A stretch of DNA of 64,000 nucleotides from Escherichia coli (lineage in GTDB: Bacteria; Pseudomonadota; Gammaproteobacteria; Enterobacterales; Enterobacteriaceae). A model generated the notes under the pieces. That model searched no databases, was not told the DNA's origin, and saw only the letters and a list, made by a program, of their open reading frames with translations. Position 1 is the stretch's first letter. Every line of letters begins with the position of its first letter. Shown one piece after another: positions 34,262-57,830 of this stretch. A program made the translations under genes and the position numbers. The stretch lies in assembly GCF_050320075.1 (NCBI RefSeq), contig NZ_CP190018.1. One strand, given 5' to 3'.

Positions 34262-37200
34262 ATGACATATCAGGCAATTTTCACTGGCTGGGATGATCTG
34301 ACGATTGAAGACCTTCTGGTCGCTTACCGGAAAGCAAAAGCCGATAGCTTCTTTGAGAATACATTTCCTGTTGCTATCAAATTTGCCGAGTATGAGCAGG
34401 AATTACTTGAAAACCTGCAAAAACTCTTAGATCTTTTGCAGAGCGAAGATGGATTCAGTAGCAATAAGAAGTTGATTGGCAAATTTCGATTGTTACCGAA
34501 AAAATTAACCACAAAGAAAAAACATGAATCCCAAAATGGACACGTCCACTTTTCTAATCCTAAACGAGCAGCCGACCATTTATTTAATAATTTTGATCTG
34601 ATACCAGAGTTTCGTATTATTGGTGACTTCCCGGTTGATAGTCACATTATCTCTGCACTATGGATTAACATGGTCGGGCATAAATTTGATGCCAGCTTAG
34701 ATAACTGTTGCTATGGCGCGCGGCTAAAGCGTATTCGTAATGATGAATTATTTAGCAATGAGCAGGATAATCCATTCCATATCAGTGCCGTGGGTTCTTT
34801 TAGCCCCTACTTCCAGCCCTACCAAAAATGGCGTGGTGATGGCTTAAAAGCTATACGTGACGAGTTGGAAAAAGATCGTGACATTATCGCCGCCTCACTG
34901 GATTTAAAAAGTTACTATCATTTTATTGATCCACTGGCTATAACCTCTGATGATCTCTATAACACACTAAACATAAAACTGACTGAGGATGAAAAAGCGT
35001 TTACTGCACAGTTAGCAGTATTCTTAAAGCACTGGTCTGACGGCGCAGCGGCATTTGGAAAGAAAATAGCGTACAAAACACCTGTTATTAATGGTGGTCT
35101 GGTCATTGGATTAACAGCCAGTCGGATCATTTCAAATATATTGCTACACCATTGGGATAAATTAGTCATTGAAAAACTATCACCAATTCACTACGGTCGT
35201 TATGTCGATGATATGTTCCTTGTAATACGCGATACAGGGACAATTACTAATAATCACGAATTTATGTTATTGCTGCAAGATAGGCTTGGCAATGATTGCG
35301 TTTATTTGAAAAACGAGCAAAAACAAATATGGCAAATACAGCAGGGCGAGCATTTCCAGGGTAAGACCACCATCCAGTTACAATCCGATAAGCAAAAACT
35401 TTTCGTGCTTCAAGGGAGGGCTGGAATAGACCTGCTCGACAGTATCGAAAAGGAGATCTACGAGCTTTCTAGTGAACACCGCTTGATGCCTTCACCGGAT
35501 CAACTGGAACACTCCACCGCAGCTAAAGTCCTTTCCGCTGCCGGTAGTGTAGGTGAAAATGCCGATACTCTGCGCCGTGCGGATGGATTAACCATTCGTC
35601 GTTTGGGCTGGTCACTGCAATTACGCTACGTTGAAACACTGGCACGAGATCTGCCTCCAAGTGAATGGAAAGAACAGCGGGAAGAGTTTTATCAGTTTGC
35701 CTACAACCATATTCTTAGGGCTGATAATCTATTTGCACATTTTAGTTATCTGCCAAGGCTGCTTGGCTTTGCTATCAGTATGAATGAATGGCAGCACGCG
35801 GAAAAAATTGTACTTAAAGCTTACGAATCCATCAACCTGTTGGCATCGGTGATTACTTCAGGTAAGGAAGTGAATATAAATGGTTGCAAAACTCGAGCAG
35901 TAAATGATCTTTGGCGCTGTATAAAAGGCACATTAAGCTGGCTATTTGTTGATGCAGCGACACGATATTACAGTCCTGACAGATTATTTCTTGATAAACG
36001 TTCAAAGAAAGAAGAGTGCCTTGCGGATACATTTTTTAATCATATTTCACAAAGTCTGACGAATCTAAAGGATTTACTGGATCTTCGCTTTGATTCAGCA
36101 GATTTTTATTTAAAAGCGCCATTGGTAGCTCGAGCTGATTTAGCAAAGGAACCTTATAAACAGATCGTAAAGAGTCAGTCGGCAGAAAAACTTGTTAATC
36201 AGCGTGATAGTAAAAAAGAAGTTAAAATACTGAAATTAATGAGCGACTCATCGCTTATTGATATTGACGTTATTAAGCTATTTTTGAAATCAACCAAGAA
36301 TACCCGACTGGAAAAAGTGGCTAAAGGAAATCGTAAGAACGAAAGTTACCTACCTTACATTTTCCCTACACGTCCTTTAACACCCGCTGAAATATCAGAA
36401 CTGGCCCCCGAATGTGTTGGATTACCCTCCACATCCGACAAAAAACCAGATGAGAGACCGTCCACCATTTGGGCAAAATATACTCAAGCATTACGCGGAG
36501 TATGGATCAAACCGACGTTGCTAGCATCGGAGCAGGACTCAGATGAAGCGACAAAAAAAGCTCGGCCTAAGAAATTCATTCATATTGGCACAGACAGGAA
36601 ACATAAAGTTGTCGTTGCGCTAACCAGCATTAAAACAGAGGAGGACGACTGGGCTAAAATGGCCTGCAATAAATCTAACTTGTCCCGTTCAAGGTACCAG
36701 CGGATTTCTGAACTGGTTAATGCAACATTGAAACTATCTCCTAAACCTGATTATGTTTTATTCCCTGAGCTTTCAATCCCGTTACGCTGGGTTAACAGTA
36801 TTGCTGATCGTTTGAGTTCGGCGGGTATCAGTCTAATTGCGGGAACAGAATACCGCCACTTAGACGATAATCAACTGAAGAGTGAGGCCGTACTTGTCCT
36901 TTCAGATAACAGACTCGGCTATCCAGCGAGTGTCAAAATATGGCAACCCAAGCTGGAACCCGCCGTAGGTGAAGATGAGGCATTATTTTCAATTTATGGT
37001 AAGTCTTGGGATTCGACACTTAATGTTAAACAACGTAAGCCGGTATATATTCATCACGGCGTCAATTTTGGCGTTATGATTTGCTCTGAACTCCAGAATA
37101 GTAAAGCGAGGATCCGTTTTCAGGGCGCACTCGATGCATTAATGGTATTGAGCTGGAATAAAGATCTAGATACGTTTGCATCGTTGATTGAATCAGCAGC

Positions 37201-37471
37201 GCTGGATATTCATGCCTATACTATTTTAGTGAATAACCGAAAATACGGCGATAGTCGCGTACGTTCCCCGGCAAAAGAACCCTTTATGCGTGATATTGCT
37301 CGTGTGAAGGGCGGTGATAATGACTTTGTGGTCGCTGCAACGCTGGATATCGACTCGTTAAGGGCATTTCAGAGCAGGGCAAAACGCTGGCCTAAAGGCG
37401 GCGATAAATTCAAACCGTTACCTGAAGGATTCCAGTTGGCAAAGAACCGCAAAAAGCTACCGCCAAAATAA
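34262..37471 (+). CDS. reverse transcriptase fused to a C-terminal nitrilase (carbon-nitrogen hydrolase) domain; DRT type 1 / UG1-like defence RT
   Basis: 1069 aa. RT motif A ASLDLKSYYHFID, motif B GGLVIGLTASRIISNILL, motif C YGRYVDDMFLV (YxDD). C-terminal domain has nitrilase catalytic-triad contexts FPELSIP (Glu) and GVMICSE (Cys). AT-rich relative to flanks. Confidence 0.85.
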   Translation: MTYQAIFTGWDDLTIEDLLVAYRKAKADSFFENTFPVAIKFAEYEQELLENLQKLLDLLQSEDGFSSNKKLIGKFRLLPKKLTTKKKHESQNGHVHFSNPKRAADHLFNNFDLIPEFRIIGDFPVDSHIISALWINMVGHKFDASLDNCCYGARLKRIRNDELFSNEQDNPFHISAVGSFSPYFQPYQKWRGDGLKAIRDELEKDRDIIAASLDLKSYYHFIDPLAITSDDLYNTLNIKLTEDEKAFTAQLAVFLKHWSDGAAAFGKKIAYKTPVINGGLVIGLTASRIISNILLHHWDKLVIEKLSPIHYGRYVDDMFLVIRDTGTITNNHEFMLLLQDRLGNDCVYLKNEQKQIWQIQQGEHFQGKTTIQLQSDKQKLFVLQGRAGIDLLDSIEKEIYELSSEHRLMPSPDQLEHSTAAKVLSAAGSVGENADTLRRADGLTIRRLGWSLQLRYVETLARDLPPSEWKEQREEFYQFAYNHILRADNLFAHFSYLPRLLGFAISMNEWQHAEKIVLKAYESINLLASVITSGKEVNINGCKTRAVNDLWRCIKGTLSWLFVDAATRYYSPDRLFLDKRSKKEECLADTFFNHISQSLTNLKDLLDLRFDSADFYLKAPLVARADLAKEPYKQIVKSQSAEKLVNQRDSKKEVKILKLMSDSSLIDIDVIKLFLKSTKNTRLEKVAKGNRKNESYLPYIFPTRPLTPAEISELAPECVGLPSTSDKKPDERPSTIWAKYTQALRGVWIKPTLLASEQDSDEATKKARPKKFIHIGTDRKHKVVVALTSIKTEEDDWAKMACNKSNLSRSRYQRISELVNATLKLSPKPDYVLFPELSIPLRWVNSIADRLSSAGISLIAGTEYRHLDDNQLKSEAVLVLSDNRLGYPASVKIWQPKLEPAVGEDEALFSIYGKSWDSTLNVKQRKPVYIHHGVNFGVMICSELQNSKARIRFQGALDALMVLSWNKDLDTFASLIESAALDIHAYTILVNNRKYGDSRVRSPAKEPFMRDIARVKGGDNDFVVAATLDIDSLRAFQSRAKRWPKGGDKFKPLPEGFQLAKNRKKLPPK

Positions 37472-37817
37472 GAAACTGATTTTCGCTATTAATAATCAGG
37501 GTATTTTTGCGTGAGATGTTGGTAAACATGATGTAGCCCTTGCCACTCATGACCAATCGCAGTATCTTTCTCCCGCGCCTGCAAAATCAGGCGTCGGGAT
37601 TAGCCTCCTGAAGAAATCTTATCGGCGACACATGACGCGCCAGCGTCTTTTTTTGTGTTGTTCGCACGGTTACATCTCAATGGTGGGCCGGGCGGGGGCG
37701 TCGCAAGACGCGCCAGTGTCCGATAAGGCTGGTAAGGCTAACCCTGCCCGGTTCCACCACCCGCGAGATTAGCCTCTCCGGTGGTGGCTTGAACACCCAC
37801 TTATCGGAGGTTGCCCT

Positions 37818-38288
37818 ATGGCTACAATCCTCACCACTGACAGCGATTTACTCGATCTATTGACCGTCCCCTTCAATGCCACCACGGATTTCACTGTCCT
37901 TGCTGACTACTGCGCCCGCTTTGCCGAAACCCTGATTGAAACCGACGATCCAGCGCTACGACTGGCGCTCTGCGGGCGGCTTCACGCGGCTCTTGCGCTA
38001 CTGCAACCCACACTACACGACCCCATCCCACCGCATCTTACCGAAAGCCTGACCGTGGATACCCTTCCCGCCACACCAGAGCACTTTATTTCCGAACCTG
38101 ATTCCTTGTGCGAATACTGCCTCGCACTACTCCAGCTTCTGCTGGAACGTCCGGCGGAACCAAAAATGGAGCAAACCCTGACCGGGCTGCTGTGTGAGCT
38201 GGTCTGGTATTTCACGGAAGGACTCAAAGCCCCACGCTGGCTGCGTACCGCCGACGGCGTAAAATTTATCAGCGAGGTGGCCGCATGA
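37818..38288 (+). CDS. hypothetical protein (156 aa, acidic, Leu/Ala-rich), GC-rich
   Basis: ORF with good coding statistics; its stop overlaps the ATG of the downstream Ner-like fragment (ATGATG), suggesting an operon. Confidence 0.5.
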
Positions 38289-38410
38289 TGCAACAGGACT
38301 GGCATTCCGCCGACATTATTGCGGTGCTGAAAAAGCGGGGAACGCCTCTGGCGGCACAGAGAAAAACTCATTGCGGAAGCGCTGTAAATATCGCCAGAAA
38401 TCATCTGGCC
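38285..38410 (+). pseudogene. Ner/Nlp-like HTH regulator gene, frameshifted
   Basis: [25 protein letters not shown]... resembles the Ner/Nlp N-terminus (DWHxADIIAxLxKxG); continuation (REKLIAEAL) is in another frame. Confidence 0.5.
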
Positions 38411-38637
38411 TTCAAGGTACTTTGATAGCAAAGGCAAGCAGGCTGGTTCAGTCCAGTGTTTCTCTTCTTGCATTTTCAGAAATGGGAGGCTGGGAGTCTA
38501 TCGAAATGGTTCGTCGATATGCTCACCTCGCGCCTAATCACCTTACCGAACACGCACGGCAAATAGACTCAGTCCTGAACCCATCGGTCCCAAATTTGTC
38601 CCAGTCAAAAAATAAGGAAGGTACTAATGATGTGTAA
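38410..38637 (+). pseudogene. 3' fragment of a tyrosine-recombinase (phage integrase) gene
   Basis: Encodes ...[35 protein letters not shown]..., the C-terminal catalytic-Tyr region of phage integrases, with no N-terminal domains. Confidence 0.7.
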
Positions 38638-38789
38638 CTTATTGATTTTAATGGTGCGATAAGAGGAATGAATATTGCAAGTTAACGCATTGATTTATAA
38701 TAGATTATTATATTCAAAAAATATAACTATACACATATCTATACACACTGCGCGCATCGCTTGTTTTTCGCACAATTAAAAATAAGAAA

Positions 38790-39080
38790 AAAGTTTTTTT
38801 TCGAAAGAACTGTTCACACTGTTCACCTTTCTGTTTTCTCCTTTTATTTCAGTTTGATAGGTGGTGAATAATGGGTGAATGGTGAACATTCGATTCTTCA
38901 CCTCCGGCATTCTGCCGGTGTGACTCATACCGGTGATTAATCCCCCGTACTGAAATCACACAGGGAGAAAAAAAGTTTTTTTTGATTTGATTGTTCACAC
39001 TGTTCACCTTTCATTTTTCTCTTTTAATTTCAGTGTGATAACGGGTGAATATACGGTGAAGGGTGAACAGTGGATTGTTC
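38790..39080. repeat. P4-type crr (cis replication region): two ~100-bp direct repeats, each with TGTTCACC / GGTGAACA iterons
   Basis: Units at about 38790-38890 and 38973-39075 are near-identical and each contains TGTTCACACTGTTCACC plus inverted GGTGAAYA copies. Confidence 0.8.
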
Positions 39081-39098
39081 ACCTTCGGGGAATTCAGG

Positions 39099-39126
39099 GA
39101 TAAAAAAAGACCGGCAGATGCCGGTC
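39099..39126 (-). terminator. rho-independent terminator downstream of alpha
   Basis: Hairpin GACCGGCA / TGCCGGTC with an adjacent T-run on the minus strand. Confidence 0.55.
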
Positions 39127-39142
39127 AGATGAGTCATGATGG

Positions 39143-41476
39143 TCAGGTTGTTGCAGGGTCGTCACATTTTGGCAGCCAGTCGCCGTAGCTTTCCTCTTTC
39201 AGCGTCAGGTTGGTCTGTATCCCCTGTTTGGTATGGCGCTTCTCGTAATTCAGTCCGTATTCCTTCAGCATCACCGGCAGCCCCAGCCCGAACATTTTCA
39301 GACTGAGTACATTCCGGTAGCCGTTTGCCTCCATGTAGGCCAGATAGGCGTGATAGAGGTATTTACGGTAATTACGCGGGATGATACTGGCGTTCCCCAT
39401 ATACATGCCGCTGGTCTGCGGCAGGGTTTCCAGATAGCCGATAAAATCAAACGTCGGGTCGGCATCCCGTTTGATGTTCAGCGCCTCGTCTGAGTTCTGC
39501 TGGGACTGAAGCAGTGACCGGGCGAGCATCGGGTCGCTGAACTTCTGCATCAGGTGACGCACGATGACCGCCAGCTCGCGGGTGATTTTGTCCTTAAGCT
39601 GCGGGTCGCGCTCCTGCGGGGCTATCTGTTCCGGGAAGTGAATAATCACCCGCCGGCGTGACACGCCGCCGCTGCGGTCGGTGAAGCGCATCGGGTTATT
39701 GTTCACGGCCAGAATTACCGCCGGGATATGCGTGGAGTATGCATCCCGGTATTTCGGGTCAACGGACACCGCATCGCCGCCGGTGATGGCCTTGAGTCCG
39801 GCACCGTCGCCGCTCCATTTTTCCTGGTCCGGCAGGCGTATCAGTGAGAAGCCAGTTAACGCGGCACGTTCACGCGGGGATTCCAGCGTCTCGATGGTGG
39901 CCGACGTGGCGTTATCCTCCCCGGCCAGCAGGGTGGCTATTTCGGCCATGATACTTTTGCCGCTGCCGCCGGGACCGGTCACCTCCAGAAAGAGCTGCCA
40001 GTCGTAGCGGTTTGCCAGCACCATAAACAGTGCGGCCAGAATCACGTCGCGTTTTTCCGCACGGCCACCGGCGGCACGGTCAAGCCAGCGCCAGAACGCG
40101 GGGGCGTGGGTCTCCAGCGTTTCACCGTCCACCGGCGGGGTGAAATCCACATCGCACAGGGTGCGCATCCAGTGTGACGGACTGTGCGGGTGGAACGTGC
40201 CGTTCTGCGTGTCGAGCACGCCGTTACGAAAGCCAATCAGGCGGCGGGAGGGGGCTTCCTGCTGCGGAATAATCAGCTTCAGGGTGTCCACCACGGAGGC
40301 CACCTTCCCGGAGGAGAACGGCGCGCGCAGACGCTGAAACAGCCCGGCCACATCCCGGGCAAAGTCCTGTGGTGGCAGCACCTTCCAGACACCATTTTCA
40401 TAACGGGACAGAAGCTGGCCGTTGGCATCGACCGCGAGCGCCTCGCCGTAATGCTCATAGATACGCATGGCCTTTTCGCTGGTACTCATGGCGGAAAACT
40501 CCGCTTCGCTCATGGTGTCGAACGGGCTTTCAGCCGGTGGCCGGATGGCATCATAAATGGCCTTACGGGTGGCTTCCCCGCCGTACTGCGTGAAGGCATC
40601 ATTCCAGTCACCGAAGACCGGCGGCAGGGCAACAACGCCCTCACACGCATCTGCGGCTGCGGCGGCTTTTTTCTGGCCGTCACCGCTGAGGTCACGGTCT
40701 GCGGCAAGGACAATCTGACAGGCCGGATGCTTCTGCCGGGCAAGGCTGGCCAGAGAAAGGAGGTTCACGGAAGAAAGCGCCACCATCACCGTTTCACCGG
40801 TCAGGTGATGTACGGTAAGTGCGGTCGCGTATCCCTCCGCTATCCACAGACGTTTTCCGGCCTGATTCTGTCCTTCAAGGGTGTGACAGGTGCCCCTGAC
40901 CTGTCCGCCTTTCAGGGTGCGCTTACGGCCGTCAGCACTGATTAACTGAAGGTTAACCAGTTCGCCGCTGTCGTCATACAGTGGCACCACAAGGTCACCG
41001 GCACGCCAGCTCACGCCACCGGCTCTGTGTGTGCCGGTCAGCATCCGGCATTCCCGGCCGGGAAAGCCCTTGCGGGTCAGGTAGGCGTTACCGGTTCCGG
41101 GACGGGTTTTCGCCATCAGGGTTTGTGCCAGTGCGGCGGCGTTCTTCCGGGCAGCGTCTGTTTCAGCACCGGCGGCAGCCGTCACTGCCGGGTCAGCCGG
41201 GGGCAGGCTGCCGGTCACGGCAGCCACCTTTGCTGCCGCGTCGGACGGGGAAACACCAAACACCTTTTCAACCAGTTTCAGGCCGTCACCGGCACCACAC
41301 TGATTGCAGTACCAGGTGCCGCGCCCCTCCCTGTCATCAAAACGGAAGCGGTCACTCCCGCCACAGACCGGACAGGGCTGATGACGGTTTTTCAGCACCT
41401 GAATCCCCAGCGCCGGGAGAATACGCGGCCAGTGGCCGAGCGCATGGCTGACGGTGGCGGTTACGTTCATTTTCAT
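39143..41476 (-). CDS. alpha: P4 alpha-type primase-helicase
   Basis: 777 aa; N-terminal zinc-binding primase motif (CPVCGGSDRFRFDD...WYCNQCGAGDG), central and C-terminal helicase region; iterons on both sides. Confidence 0.9.
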   Translation of the reverse strand: MKMNVTATVSHALGHWPRILPALGIQVLKNRHQPCPVCGGSDRFRFDDREGRGTWYCNQCGAGDGLKLVEKVFGVSPSDAAAKVAAVTGSLPPADPAVTAAAGAETDAARKNAAALAQTLMAKTRPGTGNAYLTRKGFPGRECRMLTGTHRAGGVSWRAGDLVVPLYDDSGELVNLQLISADGRKRTLKGGQVRGTCHTLEGQNQAGKRLWIAEGYATALTVHHLTGETVMVALSSVNLLSLASLARQKHPACQIVLAADRDLSGDGQKKAAAAADACEGVVALPPVFGDWNDAFTQYGGEATRKAIYDAIRPPAESPFDTMSEAEFSAMSTSEKAMRIYEHYGEALAVDANGQLLSRYENGVWKVLPPQDFARDVAGLFQRLRAPFSSGKVASVVDTLKLIIPQQEAPSRRLIGFRNGVLDTQNGTFHPHSPSHWMRTLCDVDFTPPVDGETLETHAPAFWRWLDRAAGGRAEKRDVILAALFMVLANRYDWQLFLEVTGPGGSGKSIMAEIATLLAGEDNATSATIETLESPRERAALTGFSLIRLPDQEKWSGDGAGLKAITGGDAVSVDPKYRDAYSTHIPAVILAVNNNPMRFTDRSGGVSRRRVIIHFPEQIAPQERDPQLKDKITRELAVIVRHLMQKFSDPMLARSLLQSQQNSDEALNIKRDADPTFDFIGYLETLPQTSGMYMGNASIIPRNYRKYLYHAYLAYMEANGYRNVLSLKMFGLGLPVMLKEYGLNYEKRHTKQGIQTNLTLKEESYGDWLPKCDDPATT

Positions 41477-41490
41477 GGTGTTGTTCTCCT

Positions 41491-41811
41491 TCAGTGCAGT
41501 ACCGGCGCTTTTATGTGACGGGCACAGAGTTCATCCATCACAACCAGCCCGAGAAAGGACAGCGACGGCGCGGCCTTCAGGGGGCCGGATTCCATTAAAT
41601 CTTCCAGCAGGGCACAGGCTATCTGACGCCCTTTTTCCTCACCGTGCTGGCGCAGATAAAAGCCTTCCAGCTCAGCGGCGATGGCCGCCTCCAGTGATTC
41701 AAGGGTGAGATGCGGGTAGCGGTGCTGACGTTCGCACACGGTCAGCCAGGCACAGGCGACAGCGCGACGGTAAAGGGCTGCGCGTAAGACGGGCGGTAAG
41801 GGTGTTTTCAT
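41491..41811 (-). CDS. P4-family conserved hypothetical protein (106 aa)
   Basis: ORF directly upstream of alpha in the left operon. Confidence 0.55.
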
Positions 41812-41946
41812 TTGTTTTCCTCCCTGTGACAGATGACTGCATTCCGTGCCGGTTGCATTAACTGATAAGGCATATCTGCGTCTCCTGAAGACGTGCGTAT
41901 CCCTGCGCGAATACGCACATTTAATTTTTCGGGTGTCGTTTTTTAA

Positions 41947-42402
41947 TTACAGATAATTGCGGTAACTGTTATCCGGGGTGATTTCCGGGTCAGGCTCCGT
42001 GCGGGGAATTTCCCGCCATTCCCGCGCCACCGGTGCCGCCCGGCTGGCCGGAACAGTGTCCTGCGGGTAAATATCCAGATATTTCTCCCGCCATTTCTGT
42101 AATTCCGGGTCTCCGGCCATTTCTTTCAGTACCGCATGCCGGTTTACGGGGCTGCGTTTAAACAGGTCAGGACGGTCACAGGTAAATTCCCGCAGAAAAC
42201 GCCCCAGCGGGATGTCTGTGGTGCGCCCGTCAGCGAGGATACGCACAAGGATACTGAATTTACGGCGGTACGGGTTCCAGACAATGTCCGGGCAGCGGTA
42301 CGGCATTTCCCACGGAATACCGTCTTCCAGAATGCCGACCACGGCCACATCGGGAAAACCGGCAGAACGGTAAATCTCACCGGGCTGGGGAAAATCAAAC
42401 AT
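41947..42402 (-). CDS. P4-family conserved hypothetical protein (151 aa; P4 orf151-like position)
   Basis: ORF in the alpha operon; size and position as in P4. Confidence 0.55.
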   Translation of the reverse strand: MFDFPQPGEIYRSAGFPDVAVVGILEDGIPWEMPYRCPDIVWNPYRRKFSILVRILADGRTTDIPLGRFLREFTCDRPDLFKRSPVNRHAVLKEMAGDPELQKWREKYLDIYPQDTVPASRAAPVAREWREIPRTEPDPEITPDNSYRNYL

Positions 42403-42682
42403 GCGTCCTGTCTCCCCGGTCTTTCTGCTGGGCGAGAAAATCGCGGCACAGGCCTTTGGCTTTCAGTTCATTCAGCACAAAATCAATATCTTCATTCAGG
42501 TAGCTGAAAATATGCGGAATGTAGAGCTGATGCAGGCCGGAGAGTTCACGGTGAATCAAATCACCCCCAACAAACCGGGATACGGCGCTGGCGCGGTTGA
42601 GCTTATGGTAAGCCTCAATGCTGAGGTGTTCACGGGCGTCATGACGCGCTGAGACGGTCTGAGGGGCTTTTTTATTACGCAC
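42395..42682 (-). CDS. P4-family small protein with probable GTG start (95 aa; epsilon-like position)
   Basis: GGAGG RBS 6 nt upstream of GTG at 42682; ORF ends overlapping the orf151-like start; the 177-aa ORF in the track is probably an over-extension. Confidence 0.4.
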
Positions 42683-42875
42683 GGGACACCTCCACCACCG
42701 GCAGACGGGCAGCAAGGGAGAGCACATAGTCACGGACAAGGGAACGGCGGGCGCTGCGTTCATCACCGGCGACGGTGCGAAGCATACAGATACGGGGATG
42801 ACGATCTGCGCGACGGACAGCCGCAAACACAAAGACAAATTCAGGGTGTGAGGTGGTAAGGGTTGTAGCCATGAT
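42675..42875 (-). CDS. P4-family small hypothetical protein (66 aa, [26 protein letters not shown]...)
   Basis: Short ORF immediately downstream of the immunity-RNA region; stop overlaps the next start. Confidence 0.4.
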
Positions 42876-42883
42876 GGCAGCCT

Positions 42884-43136
42884 CCTTGAAGTAACAGTTA
42901 CAGCTACCACTGGAGTTCCTACGCTCATGGGTGGTAGCCCGGACGGGGGTAGGAATACCGGCCTTCAAGGAAACCGGCCAGCCCGAAGGCTGCCCCGCCC
43001 GGACCACCATTATCTGACAGAGGCTACGGTTTAAAAACCACAGCCAGAAAAACAGGTGTGCCGAAGCAACGACGTAAAAAAAGACGCATGGCGCGTCATA
43101 TGTCGCCTTGAAGTAACTCGGGTTCCTACGCCCGGC
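42884..43136 (-). ncRNA. P4-type RNA immunity region (CI-RNA-like seqB flanked by complementary seqA / seqC-like repeats)
   Basis: Direct repeats CCTTGAAGTAAC...GTTCCTACGC at 42884-42924 and 43106-43136, and between them (42949-42971) GGTAGGAATACCGGCCTTCAAGG, complementary to both; in the untranslated leader of the left operon. Confidence 0.5.
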
Positions 43137-43225
43137 TGCCGATTTTGCGGCAGCGGAAAAACTATATCCGCAAATGCCGGAAAAAGGCAAGCCAGAAAAA
43201 GGGACTTTTTGCAGAACAGGCATCA

Positions 43226-43492
43226 TCATGCGTCATACCCCCGTTGGCGTCCGGCAATGCGGCCGGCCATCCATGCGGTGACTTCAGAGTGCAGCCAGGC
43301 CACATTTTTACCGCCAAGACTCACCTGCGGCGGAAATTCCCCCTTACGGATGAGTTCATAGATGGTCGAGCGTGACAGGCCGCACAGGTGCATCACTTCC
43401 GGCAGACGTAAAAAACGCTCCTGCGTGATGTCCGGCAGCGGCATCAGTGGCGTCACAGGGGCGGGAGACGGGGAAGAAAAAACAGCTTGCAT
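43226..43492 (-). CDS. alpA: AlpA-family phage regulatory protein (small MerR-like HTH)
   Basis: [50 protein letters not shown] is the AlpA signature; true start may be the internal Met (43444). Confidence 0.85.
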
Positions 43493-43769
43493 CGGGCTAC
43501 CTCGTTAATGTCCATACAGCACCGGATAAGTCCGTCCGGCTTCTGGTAGCGCTTTATTTTGTGAATATTTTCAGCAGACGCAACAGGGGGAATTTGTTCC
43601 GGCAACCTTACAATGGCTGTGTGTTTTTTATCCATCTGGACTGGAAGGGTCTCAAAGGGTTCTGAAGGACCTGGAATTTTTTATAGTGAAATACAAATTG
43701 TTTTTTCTTATTTATTTCAGTGAATTAATAAAAATAAACAGTGATAAACAGCATAAAAAGCCCATCAAC

Positions 43770-43880
43770 GGGTGAACAGTGGTGAACAGACGGTGAACAG
43801 TCATTACTGCGATTGTTCACCCTTTAACTTACTGTATTACTTATCTTTTTTCTTATGGTGAACAGAGGTGAACAGTAAAA
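43770..43880. repeat. P4-type origin of replication: six GGTGAACA / TGTTCACC iterons
   Basis: GGTGAACAGTGGTGAACAGACGGTGAACAG (43771-43800), TGTTCACC (43815-43822), GGTGAACAGAGGTGAACAG (43858-43876), within AT-rich DNA between alpA and sid. Confidence 0.8.
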
Positions 43881-44043
43881 TATAAAAAAACAAACAGTAA
43901 GCCGGTTTTTCCTGCGACCTTTTCCTGGCTTGCCGGTCTGAGGATGAGTCTCCTGTGTCAGGGCTGGCACATCTGCAATGCGTCGTGTTGCTGTCCGGTG
44001 TACGTCACAATTTTCTTAACCTGAAGTGACGAGGAGCCGGAAA

Positions 44044-44778
44044 ATGTCTGACCACACTATCCCTGAATATCTGCAACCCGCACTGGCACAACTGGAAAAG
44101 GCCAGAGCCGCCCATCTTGAGAACGCCCGCCTGATGGATGAGACCGTCACGGCCATTGAACGGGCAGAGCAGGAAAAAAATGCGCTGGCGCAGGCCGACG
44201 GAAACGACGCTGACGACTGGCGCACGGCCTTTCGTGCAGCCGGTGGTGTCCTGAGCGACGAGCTGAAACAGCGCCACATTGAGCGCGTGGCACGCCGGGA
44301 GCTGGTACAGGAATATGACAATCTGGCCGTGGTGCTGAATTTCGAACGTGAACGCCTGAAAGGGGCGTGTGACAGCACGGCCACCGCCTACCGGAAGGCA
44401 CATCATCACCTTCTGAGTCTGTATGCAGAGCATGAGCTGGAACACGCCCTGAATGAAACCTGTGAGGCGCTTGTCCGGGCAATGCATCTGAGCATTCTGG
44501 TACAGGAAAATCCGCTCGCCAACACCACCGGCCATCAGGGCTACGTCGCACCCGATAAGGCTGTCATGCAGCAGGTGAAATCATCGCTGGAACAGAAAAT
44601 TAAACAGATGCAAATCAGCCTCAGCGGCGAGCCGGTTCTCCGGCTGACCGGACTGTCAGCGGCAACACTTCCGCACATGGATTATGAGGTGGCAGGCACA
44701 CCGGCACAGCGCAAGGTGTGGCAGGACAAAATAGACCAGCAGGGAGCAGAGCTTAAGGCCAGAGGACTGCTGTCATGA
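44044..44778 (+). CDS. sid: P4 Sid-type capsid size determination (external scaffold) protein
   Basis: 244 aa from the internal Met (MSDHTIPEYLQPALAQLEKARAAH...), coiled-coil rich; followed by delta and psu. Confidence 0.85.
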   Translation: MSDHTIPEYLQPALAQLEKARAAHLENARLMDETVTAIERAEQEKNALAQADGNDADDWRTAFRAAGGVLSDELKQRHIERVARRELVQEYDNLAVVLNFERERLKGACDSTATAYRKAHHHLLSLYAEHELEHALNETCEALVRAMHLSILVQENPLANTTGHQGYVAPDKAVMQQVKSSLEQKIKQMQISLSGEPVLRLTGLSAATLPHMDYEVAGTPAQRKVWQDKIDQQGAELKARGLLS

Positions 44779-45275
44779 TTTACTGCCCGTCGTGTGGACA
44801 TGTTGCTCACACCCGTCGCGCACATTTCATGGACGATGGCACCAAGATAATGATTGCACAGTGCCGGAATATTTATTGCTCTGCGACATTTGAAGCGAGT
44901 GAAAGCTTTTTCTCTGACAGTAAAGATTCAGGAATGGAATACATTTCAGGCAAACAGAGATACCGCGATTCACTGACGTCAGCCTCCGGCAGTATGAAAC
45001 GCCCGAAAAGAATGCTTGTTACCGGATATTGTTGTCGGAGATGTAAAGGCCTTGCACTGTCAAGAACATCGCGGCGTCTGTCTCAGGAAGTCACCGAGCG
45101 TTTTTATGTGTGCACGGATCGGGGCTGTGGTCTGGTGTTTAAAACGCTTCAGACCATCAACCGTTTCATTGTCCGCCCGGTCACGCCGGACGAACTGGCA
45201 GAACGCCTGCATGAAAAACAGGAACTGCCGCCAGTACGGTTAAAAACACAATCATATTCGCTGCGTCTGGAATGA
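44775..45275 (+). CDS. delta: P4 Delta-type late transcription activator (tandem Ogr-like zinc fingers)
   Basis: 166 aa; two CxxC...CxxC zinc-finger units (MIYCPSCGH...CRNIYC and YCCRRCKG...CTDRGC). Confidence 0.9.
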   Translation: MIYCPSCGHVAHTRRAHFMDDGTKIMIAQCRNIYCSATFEASESFFSDSKDSGMEYISGKQRYRDSLTSASGSMKRPKRMLVTGYCCRRCKGLALSRTSRRLSQEVTERFYVCTDRGCGLVFKTLQTINRFIVRPVTPDELAERLHEKQELPPVRLKTQSYSLRLE

Positions 45276-45348
45276 GGGCTGCCGGTTAACACCGGCCGTC
45301 GCCGCACACCGTATTTTTATTCTTCAGCATGATGAGAAAGAGATAACG

Positions 45349-45921
45349 ATGGAAAGCACAGCCTTACAGCAGGCCTTTGACACCTGTCAGAATAACAAAG
45401 CAGCATGGCTGCAACGCAAAAATGAGCTGGCAGCGGCCGAACAGGAATATCTGCGGCTTCTGTCAGGAGAAGGTAGAAACGTCAGTCGCCTGGACGAATT
45501 ACGCAATATTATCGAAGTCAGAAAATGGCAGGTGAATCAGGCTGCCGGTCGTTATATTCGTTCGCATGAAGCCGTTCAGCACATCAGCATCCGCGACCGG
45601 CTGAATGATTTTATGCAGCAGCACGGCACAGCACTGGCGGCCGCACTGGCACCGGAGCTGATGGGCTACAGTGAGCTGACGGCCATTGCCCGAAACTGTG
45701 CCATACAGCGTGCCACAGATGCCCTGCGTGAAGCCCTTCTGTCCTGGCTTGCGAAGGGGGAAAAAATTAATTATTCCGCACAGGATAGCGACATTTTAAC
45801 GACTATCGGATTCAGGCCTGACGCGGCTTCTGTGGATGACAGCCGTGAAAAATTCACCCCTGCGCAGAACATGATTTTTTCGCGTAAAAGTGCGCAACTG
45901 GCATCACGTCAGTCTGTGTAA
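45349..45921 (+). CDS. psu: P4 Psu-type polarity suppression / capsid decoration protein
   Basis: 190 aa; last gene of the sid-delta-psu operon, followed by cos. Confidence 0.85.
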   Translation: MESTALQQAFDTCQNNKAAWLQRKNELAAAEQEYLRLLSGEGRNVSRLDELRNIIEVRKWQVNQAAGRYIRSHEAVQHISIRDRLNDFMQQHGTALAAALAPELMGYSELTAIARNCAIQRATDALREALLSWLAKGEKINYSAQDSDILTTIGFRPDAASVDDSREKFTPAQNMIFSRKSAQLASRQSV

Positions 45922-46085
45922 AATTCCCCGAAAATCCGCCTGTTTTTACTGAAAAAAGCCATGCATCGATAAGGTGCATGGCTTTGCATGCGTTTTCCTG
46001 CCTCATTTTCTGCAAACCGCACCATTCCCGGCGCGGTCTGAGCGTGTCAGTGCAACTGCATTAAAACCGCCCCGCAAAGCGGGCG

Positions 46086-46104
46086 GGCGAGGCGGGGAAA
46101 GCAC
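46086..46104 (+). other. cos cohesive-end sequence of P2/P4 type
   Basis: GGCGAGGCGGGGAAAGCAC matches the 19-nt P2/P4 cohesive end as I recall it; position just downstream of psu fits P4. Confidence 0.65.
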
Positions 46105-46122
46105 TGCGCGCAACAATGATGA

Positions 46123-47517
46123 TTATGATTTCATTTTATCTGCAATATCTTCTAAGGAATCAAAGAATGCTTTGACAAAGTTGTCTTTATTAACAGTAGT
46201 AAAGTTTTGATTGTAAAATCCTACACATGCAGAAAAAATTGCTCTGCAAGTTAGCTCATTATATTTAGATGAATATAATGGTTCGACTCCACGATACACG
46301 GACCAAGAACCATGAGCTATATCAGACCTAGTCTTATACATTTCCTGAGCCACTCTAGCCCATTTTTTTTCATCTTGATAATAAATAGAAACTAATGAAG
46401 AAACACGACTTACGAAGTTCTTTGTTGTAGATGAATCCTTTTTTTCGCTACTTAGACTAACCAGCCGTTCAAGAGCCGTTGTTAATTTTACTATACGAGA
46501 ACTTTCATCCTTATCCTGTTGTGCGCTACTAAATAAATAGATAGCATCAATTAGCCTGTCTGCAATTACAGAGTTTTCATGAGGTTCTATCGCCAACTCT
46601 ATTAACCGAGAAAGAACTAACCCTAAGTCAGATTTGTAATCATCTTCAAACTTATTCCAAAACTCACCGCTATTGGCTATAGTCCCTTTAGTTGAGTAAT
46701 GATAGTTAAACATTTCGTTTGGTTTCTTGGAAAGATAAAAGCCGTCATAATTTGGGTAAGGATCTGTTGATATACTTAAAAAGTATGGGGAGATATTATA
46801 GTGCACACCAAATAGCTGTAGTATCCCAACCACAAAACATGCAATATTTTTAGCGATTCTCTGCCTACTTAACTTAGAGCGTTTGCTAACAGGGATTTTT
46901 AGGTAGTGTTTATAATGAAATTTATGAGAAGAACAAAATTTCTTAGCTAAATCAAGTTGTTGCTCAGTAAAATCATCACTAATAGTTAAGTGCATTTTTT
47001 CTGCCGATATAATATCAACTCGGCCAATAGACATTATATCTCGTTCCAACCCGTGAGCTAAAATAGGATAATAAAAATCCTCTTCAGACATTTCTCTCCT
47101 TGTTAGTTTTAATGTTTTATTTAGGAGGATAGTACATCCACTCCTGTCGCAACTGCCGTTCTCAACCCAAATATGCATAAACAATATTTTCTTAAGATTA
47201 CTTAAAAATTCATCGGTAGTAACTAGCATTTCTAAGCGATTTGATTTTATAAATCTAGCCGAAATAGCATATAACTTCTCATAAGAGGCATATGATAGAT
47301 GAATTTGAGTTCTAGAAAGATCTGTTCTTCCTTTTATTAGTTCATATGGTGCATCTATGGTCATTCCCAATGAACCAAAATTACCATTATATTCTTTTTT
47401 GTAAAATTCCATAAAATTAGATGAGGATGTTAACTCTTTATTTATTCTAACAGCCTCATCAAGAATAAATTTAAAATCTTTAACGTCTTCCAAACTGGCA
47501 CTCATCATTTTCACCAT
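46123..47517 (-). CDS. uncharacterised 464-aa protein in the P4 psu-int hotspot; C-terminal HEPN-like Rx4H motif; candidate anti-phage effector
   Basis: Strongly AT-rich versus the GC-rich flanking P4 genes; sits between cos/psu and int; C-terminal region contains RSDIAHG (R-x4-H-G, as in HEPN RNases); no Walker or other obvious motif; start overlaps the int 3' end. Confidence 0.7.
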   Translation of the reverse strand: MVKMMSASLEDVKDFKFILDEAVRINKELTSSSNFMEFYKKEYNGNFGSLGMTIDAPYELIKGRTDLSRTQIHLSYASYEKLYAISARFIKSNRLEMLVTTDEFLSNLKKILFMHIWVENGSCDRSGCTILLNKTLKLTRREMSEEDFYYPILAHGLERDIMSIGRVDIISAEKMHLTISDDFTEQQLDLAKKFCSSHKFHYKHYLKIPVSKRSKLSRQRIAKNIACFVVGILQLFGVHYNISPYFLSISTDPYPNYDGFYLSKKPNEMFNYHYSTKGTIANSGEFWNKFEDDYKSDLGLVLSRLIELAIEPHENSVIADRLIDAIYLFSSAQQDKDESSRIVKLTTALERLVSLSSEKKDSSTTKNFVSRVSSLVSIYYQDEKKWARVAQEMYKTRSDIAHGSWSVYRGVEPLYSSKYNELTCRAIFSACVGFYNQNFTTVNKDNFVKAFFDSLEDIADKMKS

Positions 47518-48685
47518 TTAAATTAATAATAAAATCACTATACCACTGCATCATTTTCTTTCGATCTTCTATATACTGTGCATGATTATATACACCACGT
47601 ATCGTGTTTTTATCCACATGAGCCAACTGCATTTCAATCCAAGCAGTATTAAAACCATTTTCATGGAGTATTGTTGATAATGTATGCCTAAATCCATGTC
47701 CTGTAAGTTTTCCCGCATAGCCTATGCGTTTGATAAGTTGATTAACACTTGCCTCACTCATAGGTTTGTTTGGATCATTCCGTCCCGGGAAAACATAACG
47801 ATAATTTCCTGTCATAGATTTAAGTTCATTAAGAAAGCCTAATACCTGGGTCGATAAGGGGACTAGGTGCGGCCTACGCATTTTCATTTTTTCGGCAGGA
47901 ATTTCCCAAATAGCGTTGTCCAGATCAAACTCTTGCCATAATGCCGCTCGCAACTCGATAGTTCTAACCCCAGTAACCATCAATAATTTTGTGGCAATCT
48001 GAACAAGTCGGCTTCCTGCATAACTATCTAAAGCACGCAGAAAATCAGGTATCTCATCTGATTTTAAGAAAGGAAAATGATTTGATTTGTGTACTTCGAG
48101 GGCACTGGACAGATCTGCCGCAGGATTAAACTCTGCTCTTCCGGTAGCAATAGCATATCGAAAAACCTCTGAGCAACGTTGCCGCACTTTGCGCATTTTC
48201 TCCAATGCACCACGTTTCTCAATTTTACGCAGCACATTTAGCAATTCTAGCGGTTTAATTTCCCCTACAGGCCTCGTCCCTACATACGGAAAAATATCAT
48301 TTTGGAACGCCTCAATAATATCTGAGGCATACCCAGCAGACCATTTTGCCGACTTCATCTGATGCCACTCTCTGGCAATCTTTTCGAATGCGTTCTCAGA
48401 TTGAATTCGTAATGCTAATTTTTGTTCTTTTCGAACCTCACTAGGATTTTTTCCCTCGGCCACTATTTTTCTGGCCTCATCACGGCGGGCGCGAGCTTCA
48501 GCAAGTGTGATCGTTGGATAAACACCAAGCGAGATCATTTTAGGTTTACCTGCATAGCGATAACGAAATCGCCAGCTTTTACTTCCATTTGGCTCTACAA
48601 GTAAAGACAACCCTTGCCCATCCCCAAGTGTATAGGCTTTAGCTTCAGGTTTAGCACGGCGAATCTGCATATCATTTAGGGGCAT
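47480..48685 (-). CDS. int: P4-type tyrosine integrase
   Basis: 401 aa; N-terminal arm-binding region (MPLNDMQIRRAKPEAKAYTLGDGQGL), C-terminal catalytic region (HGFRHT...YNHAQY); start faces the tRNA fragment 165 bp away. Confidence 0.95.
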   Translation of the reverse strand: MPLNDMQIRRAKPEAKAYTLGDGQGLSLLVEPNGSKSWRFRYRYAGKPKMISLGVYPTITLAEARARRDEARKIVAEGKNPSEVRKEQKLALRIQSENAFEKIAREWHQMKSAKWSAGYASDIIEAFQNDIFPYVGTRPVGEIKPLELLNVLRKIEKRGALEKMRKVRQRCSEVFRYAIATGRAEFNPAADLSSALEVHKSNHFPFLKSDEIPDFLRALDSYAGSRLVQIATKLLMVTGVRTIELRAALWQEFDLDNAIWEIPAEKMKMRRPHLVPLSTQVLGFLNELKSMTGNYRYVFPGRNDPNKPMSEASVNQLIKRIGYAGKLTGHGFRHTLSTILHENGFNTAWIEMQLAHVDKNTIRGVYNHAQYIEDRKKMMQWYSDFIINLNGENDECQFGRR

Positions 48686-48849
48686 GTGTATAGAATTCCA
48701 AAATCGAACAGGAACATATACATAATCCTATACACATTTAGTACTGGATTCTACTGGAAGGTTATGGACTAACACGGACAACGATAACAAAAAATCTTTT
48801 ATAAAACAGTATGCTTATGGACAAATACGGACGTTTGAAGAAGTTGGGA

Positions 48850-48896
48850 TGGTGCCGATAATAGGAGTCGAACCTACGACCTTCGCATTACGAATC
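48850..48896 (-). tRNA. 3' fragment (~47 nt) of a thrW-type tRNA-Thr(CGU); attachment-site core, not a complete tRNA
   Basis: Minus strand reads GATTCGTAATGCGAAGGTCGTAGGTTCGACTCCTATTATCGGCACCA (anticodon loop with CGU through T-arm to CCA); the sequence 5' of it cannot form acceptor and D stems. Confidence 0.8.
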
Positions 48897-49126
48897 TGTA
48901 GCACCAATCATAACTATCTGTTTTAGCAAGCATTAACCGCATTCACCAAGCAATAGTTGATGGCACAAACAGAAAGTTGATGCATGATGTTGTCATGTGT
49001 ATGTCACAAATACGGCACAACGATCTTCAAACATGTAGCCACTCAGCATAGAAGAGCACAAAGCCTTGCAATCCAGTGCAAAGCTTTGTGTGTCTCAGTT
49101 TTGTTTCATCTGTAATTATGTGTTCG

Positions 49127-49429
49127 CTACGATGCAAGAATCCATACCGATAAGCATCCGATAATTGGGAAAGAAAAATCCAACAAACTTCCCACACCCC
49201 ACGCGCGCGGATCAAAACCGCCCCACCACGGCATATTCATACGCTTGCCATGCCCGAACATTTCAATCCAGCGATATTCTGCCTGGGTGTGTTCACGCGC
49301 AATGAAGAACGTACAACCGGCTATCGCACCGTAAGCCCAGTTTCCGGTAAAAAGACCAATCAGTAGCTGCGCAGCCACAGCACAAAGTGCATGAAGTAAG
49401 GGTGTTATATCCATTTTCATCCTACCCAA
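49127..49429 (-). CDS. hypothetical small membrane protein (100 aa) between the att core and oac
   Basis: ORF with two hydrophobic segments; function unknown. Confidence 0.4.
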   Translation of the reverse strand: MGRMKMDITPLLHALCAVAAQLLIGLFTGNWAYGAIAGCTFFIAREHTQAEYRWIEMFGHGKRMNMPWWGGFDPRAWGVGSLLDFSFPIIGCLSVWILAS

Positions 49430-49885
49430 TAAAACGGGGCGCTCGGCCCATTAATATTATTTAGACGCAAGCGCTGCCTCAATTGCAGATAACATTTGTC
49501 TTAATTCTGCGTTTTCTTCTTCCAGTGCTGTTATTCTGTCGTCTGACTCTCTGGCTACCTGAACAAGCAAGCCAGTAACACCAGAATAATCTACAGTGTA
49601 ATACCGTTCACCTTCTTCACCTAAAGGATGACAAAATCACATAAATAATTTAAAAATCATAGCATTAGATTACTTAATGATTAAATAATAGACTGCGAAA
49701 CGCGACAAAACACAACATATCCAGTCACTATGAATCAACTACTTAGATGGTATTAGTGACCTGTAACAGAGTATTAGCGCAAGGTGATTTTTTGTCTTCT
49801 TGCGCTAATTTTTTGTCAACGCACTGGGTTAGTTGAATTTACAACCATGCTCAGTTTGGTGATCTCTTTAGGTCGATTGTTATGG

Positions 49886-50926
49886 TTATGCTCTGCTTGA
49901 TTCAGTGATTTTGGAATCCTGCATTTTAGTAATCATACCCATAATTTTATGCCTAAGCTTTTCCATTGGGTTTTCGATTAGATAAAAACTTACCGCCCCA
50001 ACTAAGATTGATGCTACCATCGTTGCTATATACATATAGAAACTGATTCCTACGTACCACACACCCATTGCTAGAATCAGGAAGTGCCATAGGTATATAG
50101 AGAAGCTCCATTTACCAATGTAAGACATTAACGGTGTTGACAGAGCCCAAGCAAATACACCTTCTCCATAGCTCATTAGCAGAACAATGAGTCCAAATAT
50201 TGGCGCATAGAAAATAAATTTGTTGAGAACCCATCCATCAGTAAACCCACCAGTTAACTTCCACATAACTTTAGGCAGTGCAATAAGCATTGATACAATA
50301 AAGAACAGGAAGGCTATATCAGACAACTCTTGACCAATTTTAAGGAAATTATCGTGATAGAGAAATGCTGCAATCATTCCGCAAGCAAACAGTGGGAAAT
50401 ACCACATCACCATTCCGCCATACGCACTATCCATCGCAGGGTACAATCCCTGTAGCAATACAGCCAGTGCGAAAATAAGGAATGCCGCTGCTTTTCCATT
50501 GTACACTTTTTGAATTGCGACACCAGCATACGCAAAGAATGGAAGTATGAAGTAGAATTTATACTCAATTGGTATTGTCCAGAAATGAAGCACGGCCTCT
50601 TTCATCGTTATGATTGAGATTGCCGTATTCAAATCAAAATACCCAAAATATGAATACACGAGAACAGCTATTGCGAACACCGGAAGGATTCTCATTGTTC
50701 TTCCAAGGAAATAACTTAAAAGAGACCGCCAGGAAAATCCGGTAGAAATAAATCTACTGGTTAGCAAAAATGCGCTGAGAACAAAGAATATCCAAACGCC
50801 AAACTGTGAACTTCCACCAAGCATAACCTCATACTCATGAAAATATATTCCTGTAGCGTGGGCTATTATTACAAGGAATACCGCTATTGCCCTTAGTCCA
50901 TCAAGAGACTTGATTTTACCTTTCAT
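49886..50926 (-). CDS. acyltransferase-3 family O-antigen acetyltransferase (Oac-like serotype-conversion enzyme)
   Basis: Multi-pass membrane protein with N-terminal LDGLRAIAVFLVIIAH (acyltransferase-3 signature); AT-rich; directly downstream of the tailspike gene; start probably the internal Met. Confidence 0.8.
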   Translation of the reverse strand: MKGKIKSLDGLRAIAVFLVIIAHATGIYFHEYEVMLGGSSQFGVWIFFVLSAFLLTSRFISTGFSWRSLLSYFLGRTMRILPVFAIAVLVYSYFGYFDLNTAISIITMKEAVLHFWTIPIEYKFYFILPFFAYAGVAIQKVYNGKAAAFLIFALAVLLQGLYPAMDSAYGGMVMWYFPLFACGMIAAFLYHDNFLKIGQELSDIAFLFFIVSMLIALPKVMWKLTGGFTDGWVLNKFIFYAPIFGLIVLLMSYGEGVFAWALSTPLMSYIGKWSFSIYLWHFLILAMGVWYVGISFYMYIATMVASILVGAVSFYLIENPMEKLRHKIMGMITKMQDSKITESSRA

Positions 50927-51009
50927 TTCTTTCCCAGATATGGAGTGAACATCTGCGAAAATGTAGCACATTTCAAGGTAAACAAGAAGCGCATCCATGC
51001 GCATTTTCA

Positions 51010-52929: not shown

Positions 52930-53017
52930 TTCATTGCTCCAGACGAATGATATGATGCAACCATGATGTGATTGCATACCGAAATGGTACTATTGAGTAT
53001 TTATCCAGTAGGTTACG

Positions 53018-57126: not shown

Positions 57127-57135
57127 GATTACCCC

Positions 57136-57828: not shown

Positions 57829-57830
57829 GG

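Follow-up and report, generated by a model that had tools for sequence, protein, structure and literature searches.

A P4-type satellite between a P22-like prophage and an older remnant at the tRNA-Thr gene thrW of Escherichia coli

We examined a 64,000-nucleotide (nt) stretch of Escherichia coli DNA (contig NZ_CP190018.1; the whole stretch is called the window below) in which a P4-type phage satellite lies between two other mobile elements at the 3' end of the tRNA-Thr gene thrW. Over the segments compared, the window is 99.9-100% identical to the chromosome of E. coli YZLc1-3 (NZ_CP123240.1), the record used to read beyond the window (window position 1 is record position 3927582). On the plus strand, the far left holds fdeC, ecp and pao genes, followed by a LysR gene, AbiEii/AbiEi and a gene for a 1069-amino-acid (aa) reverse transcriptase. 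A short ash gene, a 156-aa open reading frame (ORF), a truncated helix-turn-helix (HTH) gene and an integrase remnant, int', then lead to the satellite, and to its right an Sf6/P22-like prophage runs out of the window.

Gene content of the satellite

The segment 38652-48895 is an intact, complete P4-type phage satellite of ~10.2 kb. Alignment to P4 (NC_001609) by blastn paired 38788-43011 with P4 4291-8504 at 97.6% identity and 43070-46085 with P4 8608-11624 at 97.3%, and all P4 hallmarks are present in P4 gene order. The P4-like core set (SatelliteFinder; Moura de Sousa & Rocha) comprises int, alpha, epsilon, alpA/vis, sid, delta and psu in one locus of <20 kb; all 7 of 7 genes are present and intact here in a 10.2-kb locus, with protein identities to P4, taken from tblastn with P4 proteins, of 98-100% except for Int (38%). 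An initial annotation, made from the sequence alone, had read these hallmarks in P4 order, which both alignments bear out; it had also called the element near-complete and P4-like, and the likeness holds while the core set proves complete.

From the int-distal side, the cis replication region (crr, 38785-39088) consists of two ~120-nt direct repeats with TGTTCACC-type iterons, placed by repeat search at 38785-38907 and 38966-39088 and aligned to P4 crr 4291-4590. Minus-strand genes follow for the 777-aa alpha primase-helicase (39143-41476; 99.4% identical to P4 alpha; phrog_2249, E = 3.5e-242), orf106 (41491-41811; 100% to P4 ORF106), orf151 (41947-42402; 98.7% to P4 ORF151) and the 95-aa helper derepression protein epsilon (42395-42682; 100% to P4 epsilon). 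Beyond these, on the same strand, are a CI/C4-type immunity RNA at 42927-43014 (Rfam RF01695, 86.1 bits, full length), a leader with an isrK-like RNA and a1/b1 C4 targets at 43077-43167 (RF01394, 73.4 bits; RF03163, 49.6 bits) and vis/orf88, encoding an AlpA-type excisionase and regulator (43226-43492; 97.7% to P4 ORF88; phrog_2790). The ori region, approximately 43548-44271, was transferred from P4 9086-9809 and falls inside the continuous 97.3% alignment. On the plus strand lie the genes for capsid size determination, sid (44044-44778; 99.2% to P4 Sid), the Ogr-type late activator, delta (44775-45275; 98.2% to P4 Delta; phrog_603), and polarity suppression and capsid decoration, psu (45349-45921; 99.5% to P4 Psu).

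The cohesive-end site, cos (46067-46113), joins the P4 right and left ends, the alignment passing from P4 11624 to P4 1-28. It is intact, because the 28 nt that follow the P4 right-end alignment (46086-46113) are the P4 left end. The 19-nt P2/P4 cohesive end GGCGAGGCGGGGAAAGCAC occurs exactly at 46086-46104, its sole match in the window at up to 3 mismatches.

Between cos and the thrW fragment, the satellite departs from P4. Its integrase gene (47480-48685, minus strand) encodes a 401-aa P4-family tyrosine recombinase for thrW (phrog_1; 38% identical to P4 Int over 409 aa, E = 2e-93) and starts 164 nt from the fragment; the same gene stands beside intact thrW in six other genomes read. K-12 IntF was considered as a relative of this integrase and set aside at just 23% local identity. 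In the place of P4 gop-beta-cII, a single hotspot cargo gene (46123-47517, minus strand) encodes a 464-aa HEPN_Apea-like protein. In its longest form the cargo ORF shares 38 nt with the 3' end of int (29 nt if it begins at the PGAP start, 47508); both genes lie on one strand, and the overlap suggests their co-transcription.

Two 18-residue stretches of the cargo protein match the representative of system 19 in Table S1B of Rousset 2022. That system, 'HEPN_Apea', has 75 occurrences in P4 hotspots and carries the note 'likely a RNase'; it is listed there, not described as validated (PMC9122126). Searches with the cargo protein returned no PADLOC family at E <=0.01, no NCBIfam match and no PDB match. 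The gene most likely encodes an anti-phage RNase carried as hotspot cargo. A variable defence hotspot between psu/cos and int is a feature of P4-like E. coli satellites (PMC9122126; PMC8628076), and sister satellites with the same int and arms carry different cargo here: HEPN, a Gabija-like pair of UvrD-helicase and ATP-dependent nuclease genes, SIR2 or an ORC/CDC6 ATPase. The architecture is that of published hotspot P4-like satellites, whose cargo, this one included, has already been catalogued (Rousset 2022; Moura de Sousa & Rocha 2021). Nothing essential sets the present copy apart from them; it just sits between two other thrW elements.

Set against P4 itself (NC_001609 / X51522), the satellite has the same gene order, 97.6% nucleotide identity from crr to cos and the same 19-nt cos. 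The layout of the phage attachment site (attP) is also alike: one arm has repeats where int begins and the other has two in tandem, although the repeat motif is CTATACACA in the satellite and GGGGGCA in P4. P4 Int targets leuX with a 20-nt core, whereas the 38% identical integrase of the satellite uses thrW with a core of ~17 nt. Immunity differs as well: the C4 specificity box is GTAGGAAC, against GTGAGAAC in P4, so heteroimmunity to P4 is probable.

Between the C4 RNA and the leader targets, a 58-nt segment (43012-43069) stands in place of the 103 nt of P4 (8505-8607). There, PGAP annotates the P4 'cI 137-aa'/Icd-like frame in two parts, an Icd-like ORF of 65 aa and an ash pseudogene; in some sister satellites one ORF of 199 aa occupies this place.

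Boundaries and the shared thrW junction

A direct repeat of the target bounds the satellite, which spans 38652-48895 including both attachment (att) copies, with 10,182 nt between them. On the int-proximal side this is the 17-nt thrW end at 48850-48866, part of a 46-nt thrW 3' fragment (48850-48895, minus strand) that is identical to the last 46 nt of thrW and departs from the gene at 48896 (c, versus g in thrW). On the int-distal side it is a 16-nt copy of the thrW 3' end (38652-38667, minus strand), which reads TGGTGC-GATAAGAGGA on the plus strand and differs from the thrW end TGGTGCCGATAATAGGA by one deletion and one substitution. Alignment to thrW, the check proposed with the initial annotation, thus places a tRNA-end copy at both ends of the satellite. 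ARAGORN found 0 tRNA genes in the whole 64-kb window, Rfam at gathering thresholds found no tRNA in 37500-50000, and no complete cloverleaf forms at 48850-48925, where the thrW match stops after 46 nt. The initial annotation had named a foldable tRNA there, or a missing repeat at the left boundary, as outcomes that would overturn it. Neither was found, and the right-hand piece is indeed a fragment, 46 nt long and not the 47 nt first given.

Relatives without the satellite show the site before insertion. In strain CFSAN061763, the AbiE/reverse transcriptase/int' remnant runs straight into intact thrW and then proA, which makes the left copy the true boundary. The left flank differs between the window and CFSAN061763 at 1 position in 6552 nt, and the right flank of YZLc1-3 shows 0 differences in 2450 nt besides two thrW allele positions. 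Conversely, the satellite occupies thrW without the prophage in strains 504237, JNEC-KY180, RM14723, G3/10, C325 and CH10508, in which the int arm lies beside intact thrW-proA; strain 4750 is a seventh such site by annotation and its int-side junction. Copies elsewhere have at least 4 different left flanks (K-12-type beside a LysR fragment, a CP4-6 arm beside ykfI and two kinds of integrase remnant). Homology to them starts at 38634-38658, within 20 nt of 38652, and stops at 48895, and near-identical copies (99.3%) occur in unrelated flank contexts.

It could be argued that the left repeat is a chance resemblance and that the true boundary lies elsewhere, for the copy is only 16 nt long with an indel and a mismatch, and an ungapped search for the thrW end at up to 3 mismatches found the right copy alone and missed it. 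However, the empty-site genome puts the tRNA end exactly at this point, the junction is found again at five further loci whose flanks differ, and homology to other copies of the element begins no more than 20 nt away. We give the chance reading practically no credence.

The fine structure of these copies narrows the site of exchange. The int-distal copy is TGGTGC-GATAATAGGAAT at five other loci and has a larger deletion in C325, and the tRNA-side copy always has CC in the loci read. Since the flanks are unlike one another to the very edge of the core, the missing C is carried by the satellite, as its attP, and is not decay; the copy described at first as degenerate (38649-38669) does mark the far end of the satellite, and its difference from thrW came with the element. 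The C deletion lies on the satellite side of distal junctions and never on the tRNA side, so crossover most likely falls in (A)TGGTGC, the GCACCA(T) end of the tRNA, a placement that assumes a single reciprocal exchange. Exchange there would give the circle junction GTTGGGA-TGGTGC-GATAAGAGGA-ATGAATATT, with an attP one C short; exchange nearer the T-loop would instead give a junction with TGGTGCCGATAAT. We infer that the att core of the satellite is only the last ~17 nt of thrW (int-proximal copy 48850-48866).

The 46-nt core, by contrast, belongs to lambdoid integrases and not to the satellite. The SfI annotation has exactly this core, 14 nt past the int stop codon, and the core plus right arm (48850-49104) is 94.5-95.7% identical to the annotated attP of HK542, ECP1, mEp213, mEp043, HK75 and HK446. 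Phages SfI, SfII, SfV, SfX, HK542, mEp213 and HK75 share the 46-nt thrW core, an int 3' end converging on the tRNA and a matching attP arm. Such lambdoid and P22-type phages of thrW are helper-independent, whereas the satellite has the terminal 17 nt and an unrelated integrase. The thrW fragment is therefore a composite junction: its left 17 nt and everything leftward are satellite, and its 46 nt and everything rightward are prophage. The suggestion that two mobile elements have one att-core copy in common is confirmed in this composite form, with the attP arm match behind it.

Beyond the core, the arms of the satellite carry repeats of their own. CTATACACA occurs 4 times in 64 kb, all at the satellite ends, against an expectation of 0.37; 0 of 100 shuffles reach 4. 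The primase-side arm (38668-38784) has two in tandem, 60-80 nt inside the satellite end (38727-38735 and 38739-38747). In the int-side arm (48686-48849), an identical copy of which precedes intact thrW in 504237, one repeat touches the int start codon (48685-48693, minus strand) and another follows 43 nt further on (48728-48736). We treat the repeats on both arms as candidate arm-type Int sites.

The int-side arm also contains two copies of ATGGAC[T/A]AA[C/T]ACGGAC, at 48764-48779 and 48817-48832. They resemble ATG[G/T]CACAAATACGGCAC, a pattern defined after the sequences were seen, in both P22-like attP arms (49001-49018 in the window; 19232-19249 in locus L004) and in the flank of the K-12 pseudo-tRNA ptwF (37304-37321 in locus L003).

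Three generations of elements at thrW

thrW is a known attachment site of SfI-, SfII-, SfV-, SfX- and HK542-type phages and of K-12 CP4-6. The stacking of elements at one tRNA site is a known phenomenon: with each new insertion the tRNA is restored and the earlier tRNA end is displaced outward, so that neighbouring elements come to share a junction. The satellite is the middle member of a three-element array of this kind. Read on the tRNA strand, proA and intact thrW (outside the window) are followed by the 38.8-kb Sf6/P22-like prophage, the 46-nt thrW fragment, the satellite, the 16-nt thrW end, the older remnant, and then LysR and pao genes. The array thus holds three thrW ends, of 16 nt, of 46 nt and of the intact gene. 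K-12 CP4-6 with the pseudo-tRNA ptwF leaves the same kind of residue, a 48-nt fragment at its far end.

A second array of this sort was observed in strain EC19 (locus L005, 7001-24458), where int' is followed by the same HEPN-carrying satellite, the 46-nt thrW fragment and an SfI-type att arm, and the array ends in a myovirus-type prophage with baseplate and tail-fibre genes. Tandem arrays of satellite and prophage at thrW therefore arose more than once.

The right-hand member begins at 48896 with an attP arm (48896-49104) that matches the annotated attP of thrW-integrating phages and continues with the late and conversion end of the prophage (49105-64000, minus strand), which extends beyond the window. 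From 48897 to 64000 the sequence is 96-97% identical to Sf6-type phages (Sf6, Gally and vB_EcoP-611R6). The prophage genes include a phrog_1443 ORF (49127-49429), an acyltransferase gene (49886-51013), a tailspike gene (51010-52977) and ejection, needle, coat and portal genes. Its place among Sf6/P22-like (Lederbergvirus-type) phages, marked by P22-type coat, portal, gp4/gp10, needle and ejection proteins, a tailspike with head-binding domain and an integrase that converges on thrW, rests on 96.7% nucleotide identity to Sf6 over the morphogenesis genes and on the PGAP annotation of YZLc1-3, in which the coat gene is assigned to the P22 family. The 100-aa ORF at 49127-49429 was considered as GtrA and rejected: it is a phrog_1443 member oriented toward the att site, and the conversion gene is the acyltransferase, not gtrABC. 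In YZLc1-3 the far end of the prophage lies 38.8 kb from 48896, where its integrase (56% identical to SfI Int) converges on an intact tRNA-Thr beside proA. The same prophage end occurs at the thrW core without the satellite in Ec-U3 and SB0258h1. The fragment had been taken at first for the att core at the conversion-gene end of this prophage, and the 46-nt core with its arm match agrees. The prophage is an independent co-tenant of the same tRNA site.

On the other side, int' (38435-38637, plus strand) is what remains of an Sf/P22-type integrase, a C-terminal piece of ~67 aa that matches the final 67 aa of SfI Int at 87% identity. Its 3' end converges on the tRNA end, YZLc1-3 annotates it as 'integrase, incomplete', and it abuts intact thrW in 256 genomes. 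The older island remnant to which it belongs (32257-38637: AbiEii/AbiEi, a DRT reverse transcriptase, ash, the 156-aa ORF, the truncated Ner-like HTH gene and int') is conserved at ~100% identity in 258 complete E. coli genomes. Its 1069-aa reverse transcriptase (34262-37471) is of the RT_UG5-nitrilase DRT type (PADLOC PDLC03780, E = 0). Directly downstream of that gene lies a second pair of isrK and C4 immunity RNAs (37575-37764, plus strand; Rfam 68.8 and 71.1 bits), with a specificity box, TTAGCCTC, that differs from GTAGGAAC of the satellite and GTGAGAAC of P4.

We also found that the K-12-type 'bacterial' flank downstream of thrW is the 3' end of a lambdoid integrase gene (in K-12, locus L003, 37240-37330, beside yagP; locus L002, 3930-4020), nearly identical to the int end of the P22-like prophage (locus L004, 19220-19298). 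Even an apparently empty thrW site is therefore a prophage scar. A search of the window for this K-12-type thrW-distal flank as the outer end of the older remnant gave no match.

Helper dependence, routes of spread and what the array means

We consider it highly probable that an intact P4-type satellite inserted itself by its own integrase into the 3' end of thrW, would be mobilised by P2-type phages and is independent of its P22-like neighbour. Gene content, boundaries, the shared junction, the empty site in relatives and the same satellite beside intact thrW elsewhere are seen directly. The life cycle would then follow established P4 biology, from which the functions of epsilon, delta, sid, psu, cos and alpha are drawn (PMC8628076). 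After insertion into thrW by the tyrosine integrase, the C4-type RNA would hold the satellite repressed, as in P4. Alpha would act on ori and crr for replication, and excision would need Int and Vis. In the presence of a P2-type phage, epsilon would derepress the helper and delta would switch on its late promoters; Sid and Psu would build small capsids from helper coat protein. The helper would supply late genes, capsid, tail and the cos-cutting terminase, and the satellite would be packaged from its own cos.

Several observations weigh against this reading. When P2 gpN (1074 nt) was added to the query, matches in the YZLc1-3 chromosome stayed at 5, so no P2-like capsid gene was detected there in this nucleotide-level search of the best-ranked (chromosome) record of the genome, sensitive to ~65-70% identity; as a control, matches in Ec-U3 rose from 6 to 7 and places over all genomes from 17311 to 20236. 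Mobilisation would therefore need an incoming P2-type helper. Phage and plasmid collections yielded no free or circular form that retains an intact attP, and the attP sequence and the crossover point are for that reason deduced from integrated copies. The plasmid search gave one weak, irrelevant match; the only other candidates were short 'phage' records, of which the one read, OR845657, is integrated host DNA with thrW and proA. For the cargo, the match to Pfam HEPN_Apea is marginal (E = 0.08).

The remaining counterpoints concern the att copies, whose fine structure fits no one simple history. The thrW of the CFSAN061763 lineage (9053-9128 in locus L015; 256 complete genomes with int' abutting thrW) reads GATAAGAGGAGTCGAACCTCCGACC, with G13 and C27, a compensatory T-stem change from U50-A64 to G50-C64 that presumably came in with the attP of the phage from which int' remains. 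The single private substitution of the window's left copy, G at 38663 where the satellite family has T, is the base of this resident allele, and it lies on the inferred satellite side of the crossover. Conservative recombination into the variant allele should keep C27 somewhere, yet it is missing from both the 46-nt fragment and the intact thrW of YZLc1-3, which are canonical. In this the array departs from tandem arrays at one tRNA gene, which it resembles in the junctions shared between neighbours: the allele pattern of its three thrW copies misfits a simple two-step conservative history.

Several histories were tried and discarded. Single-crossover histories, with satellite or prophage first and exchange at the CCA end or the T-loop, give neither the missing C together with G13 nor the loss of C27. 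Placing the exchange to the right of position 13 accounts for G13, but the same C would then have to be lost in at least 4 independent flank contexts, and import of the array by homologous recombination is unlikely, since the left flank matches the resident lineage up to the core. Among complete E. coli genomes the G-type left junction TGGTGCGATAAGAGGAAT occurs in YZLc1-3 only; its 17 matches in metagenome contigs are all chance matches in unrelated contexts. The G13/C27 pattern may stem from further events at thrW that have left no trace, from heteroduplex repair or from coincidence (~1 in 48 given one substitution).

The neighbouring prophage was proposed at the outset as the helper, exploited in P4 style through epsilon derepression, delta activation, Sid/Psu resizing and packaging. 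The two elements are physical neighbours with one common att junction, and the lack of a detected P2-like capsid gene in the YZLc1-3 chromosome leaves no canonical helper resident. We nevertheless find this highly improbable. P4 epsilon, delta and Sid/Psu act on the P2-type repressor, late promoters and gpN capsids (PMC8628076), and the exploitation genes of this satellite are 98-100% identical to those of P4. An exact P2-type cos is kept in the satellite, while the 38.8-kb prophage has none even at 4 mismatches. Headful packaging from a pac site within the small-terminase gene is the mode of P22-type phages (PMC8575938), and headful packaging is expected of this prophage by analogy with its Sf6/P22 relatives. 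Moreover, the elements occur independently: the same satellite lies beside intact thrW without such a prophage and beside an SfI-type att arm in EC19, and the same prophage end is found without the satellite.

A different role for the prophage is passive carriage by lateral transduction, in which in-situ headful packaging from pac would run through the late genes and the 46-nt junction and take in the satellite like any other flanking DNA. The minus-strand order is terminase, portal, coat, tailspike, att junction, satellite; the small-terminase gene lies ~18 kb from 48896 and the satellite ends 28.5 kb away from it, within a headful of ~40-44 kb. In P22, packaging proceeds in one direction from pac in terS, and DNA downstream is transferred at high frequency once SOS is induced (PMC8575938). 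We regard this route as possible, if unlikely, since it is a positional argument with pac and direction presumed for this prophage, and a non-specific one: any adjacent DNA would travel equally. More doubtful still is the extended version, in which the satellite travels in the first lateral-transduction headful and its Int and Vis then re-insert it at the recipient thrW. If true, a cos-type satellite would have a second way to spread, independent of a helper, that depends on tandem residence at a shared tRNA. It is also improbable that the element has lost its mobility and persists as a fixed, domesticated island for the sake of its cargo gene. In favour, a resident P2-like helper was not detected and the left att copy has its one private substitution, but every P4 core gene is complete and 98-100% identical to its P4 counterpart, the cos, crr and C4 RNA are intact, and the putative overlap ATGGTGC stands at both ends. 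None of the other ~256 genomes of that lineage has the element, so it is a recent arrival, and its near-identical copies (99.3%) lie in unrelated flanks.

Insertion by its own integrase, with mobilisation by P2-type phages, remains the reading we favour for a satellite that sits in a genome without a detectable P2-type helper. The satellite, its variable parts and the stacking at thrW are of known kinds, and nothing here alters the current understanding of satellites. The locus narrows the att core of the satellite at thrW to ~17 nt, with exchange probably in the last 6-7 nt. It illustrates how P4-type satellites exchange their integrase/att module and defence cargo while the helper-exploitation core stays almost unchanged, and it offers a worked example of how mobile elements gather at one tRNA gene over three generations, with a shorter piece of its end left behind by each.

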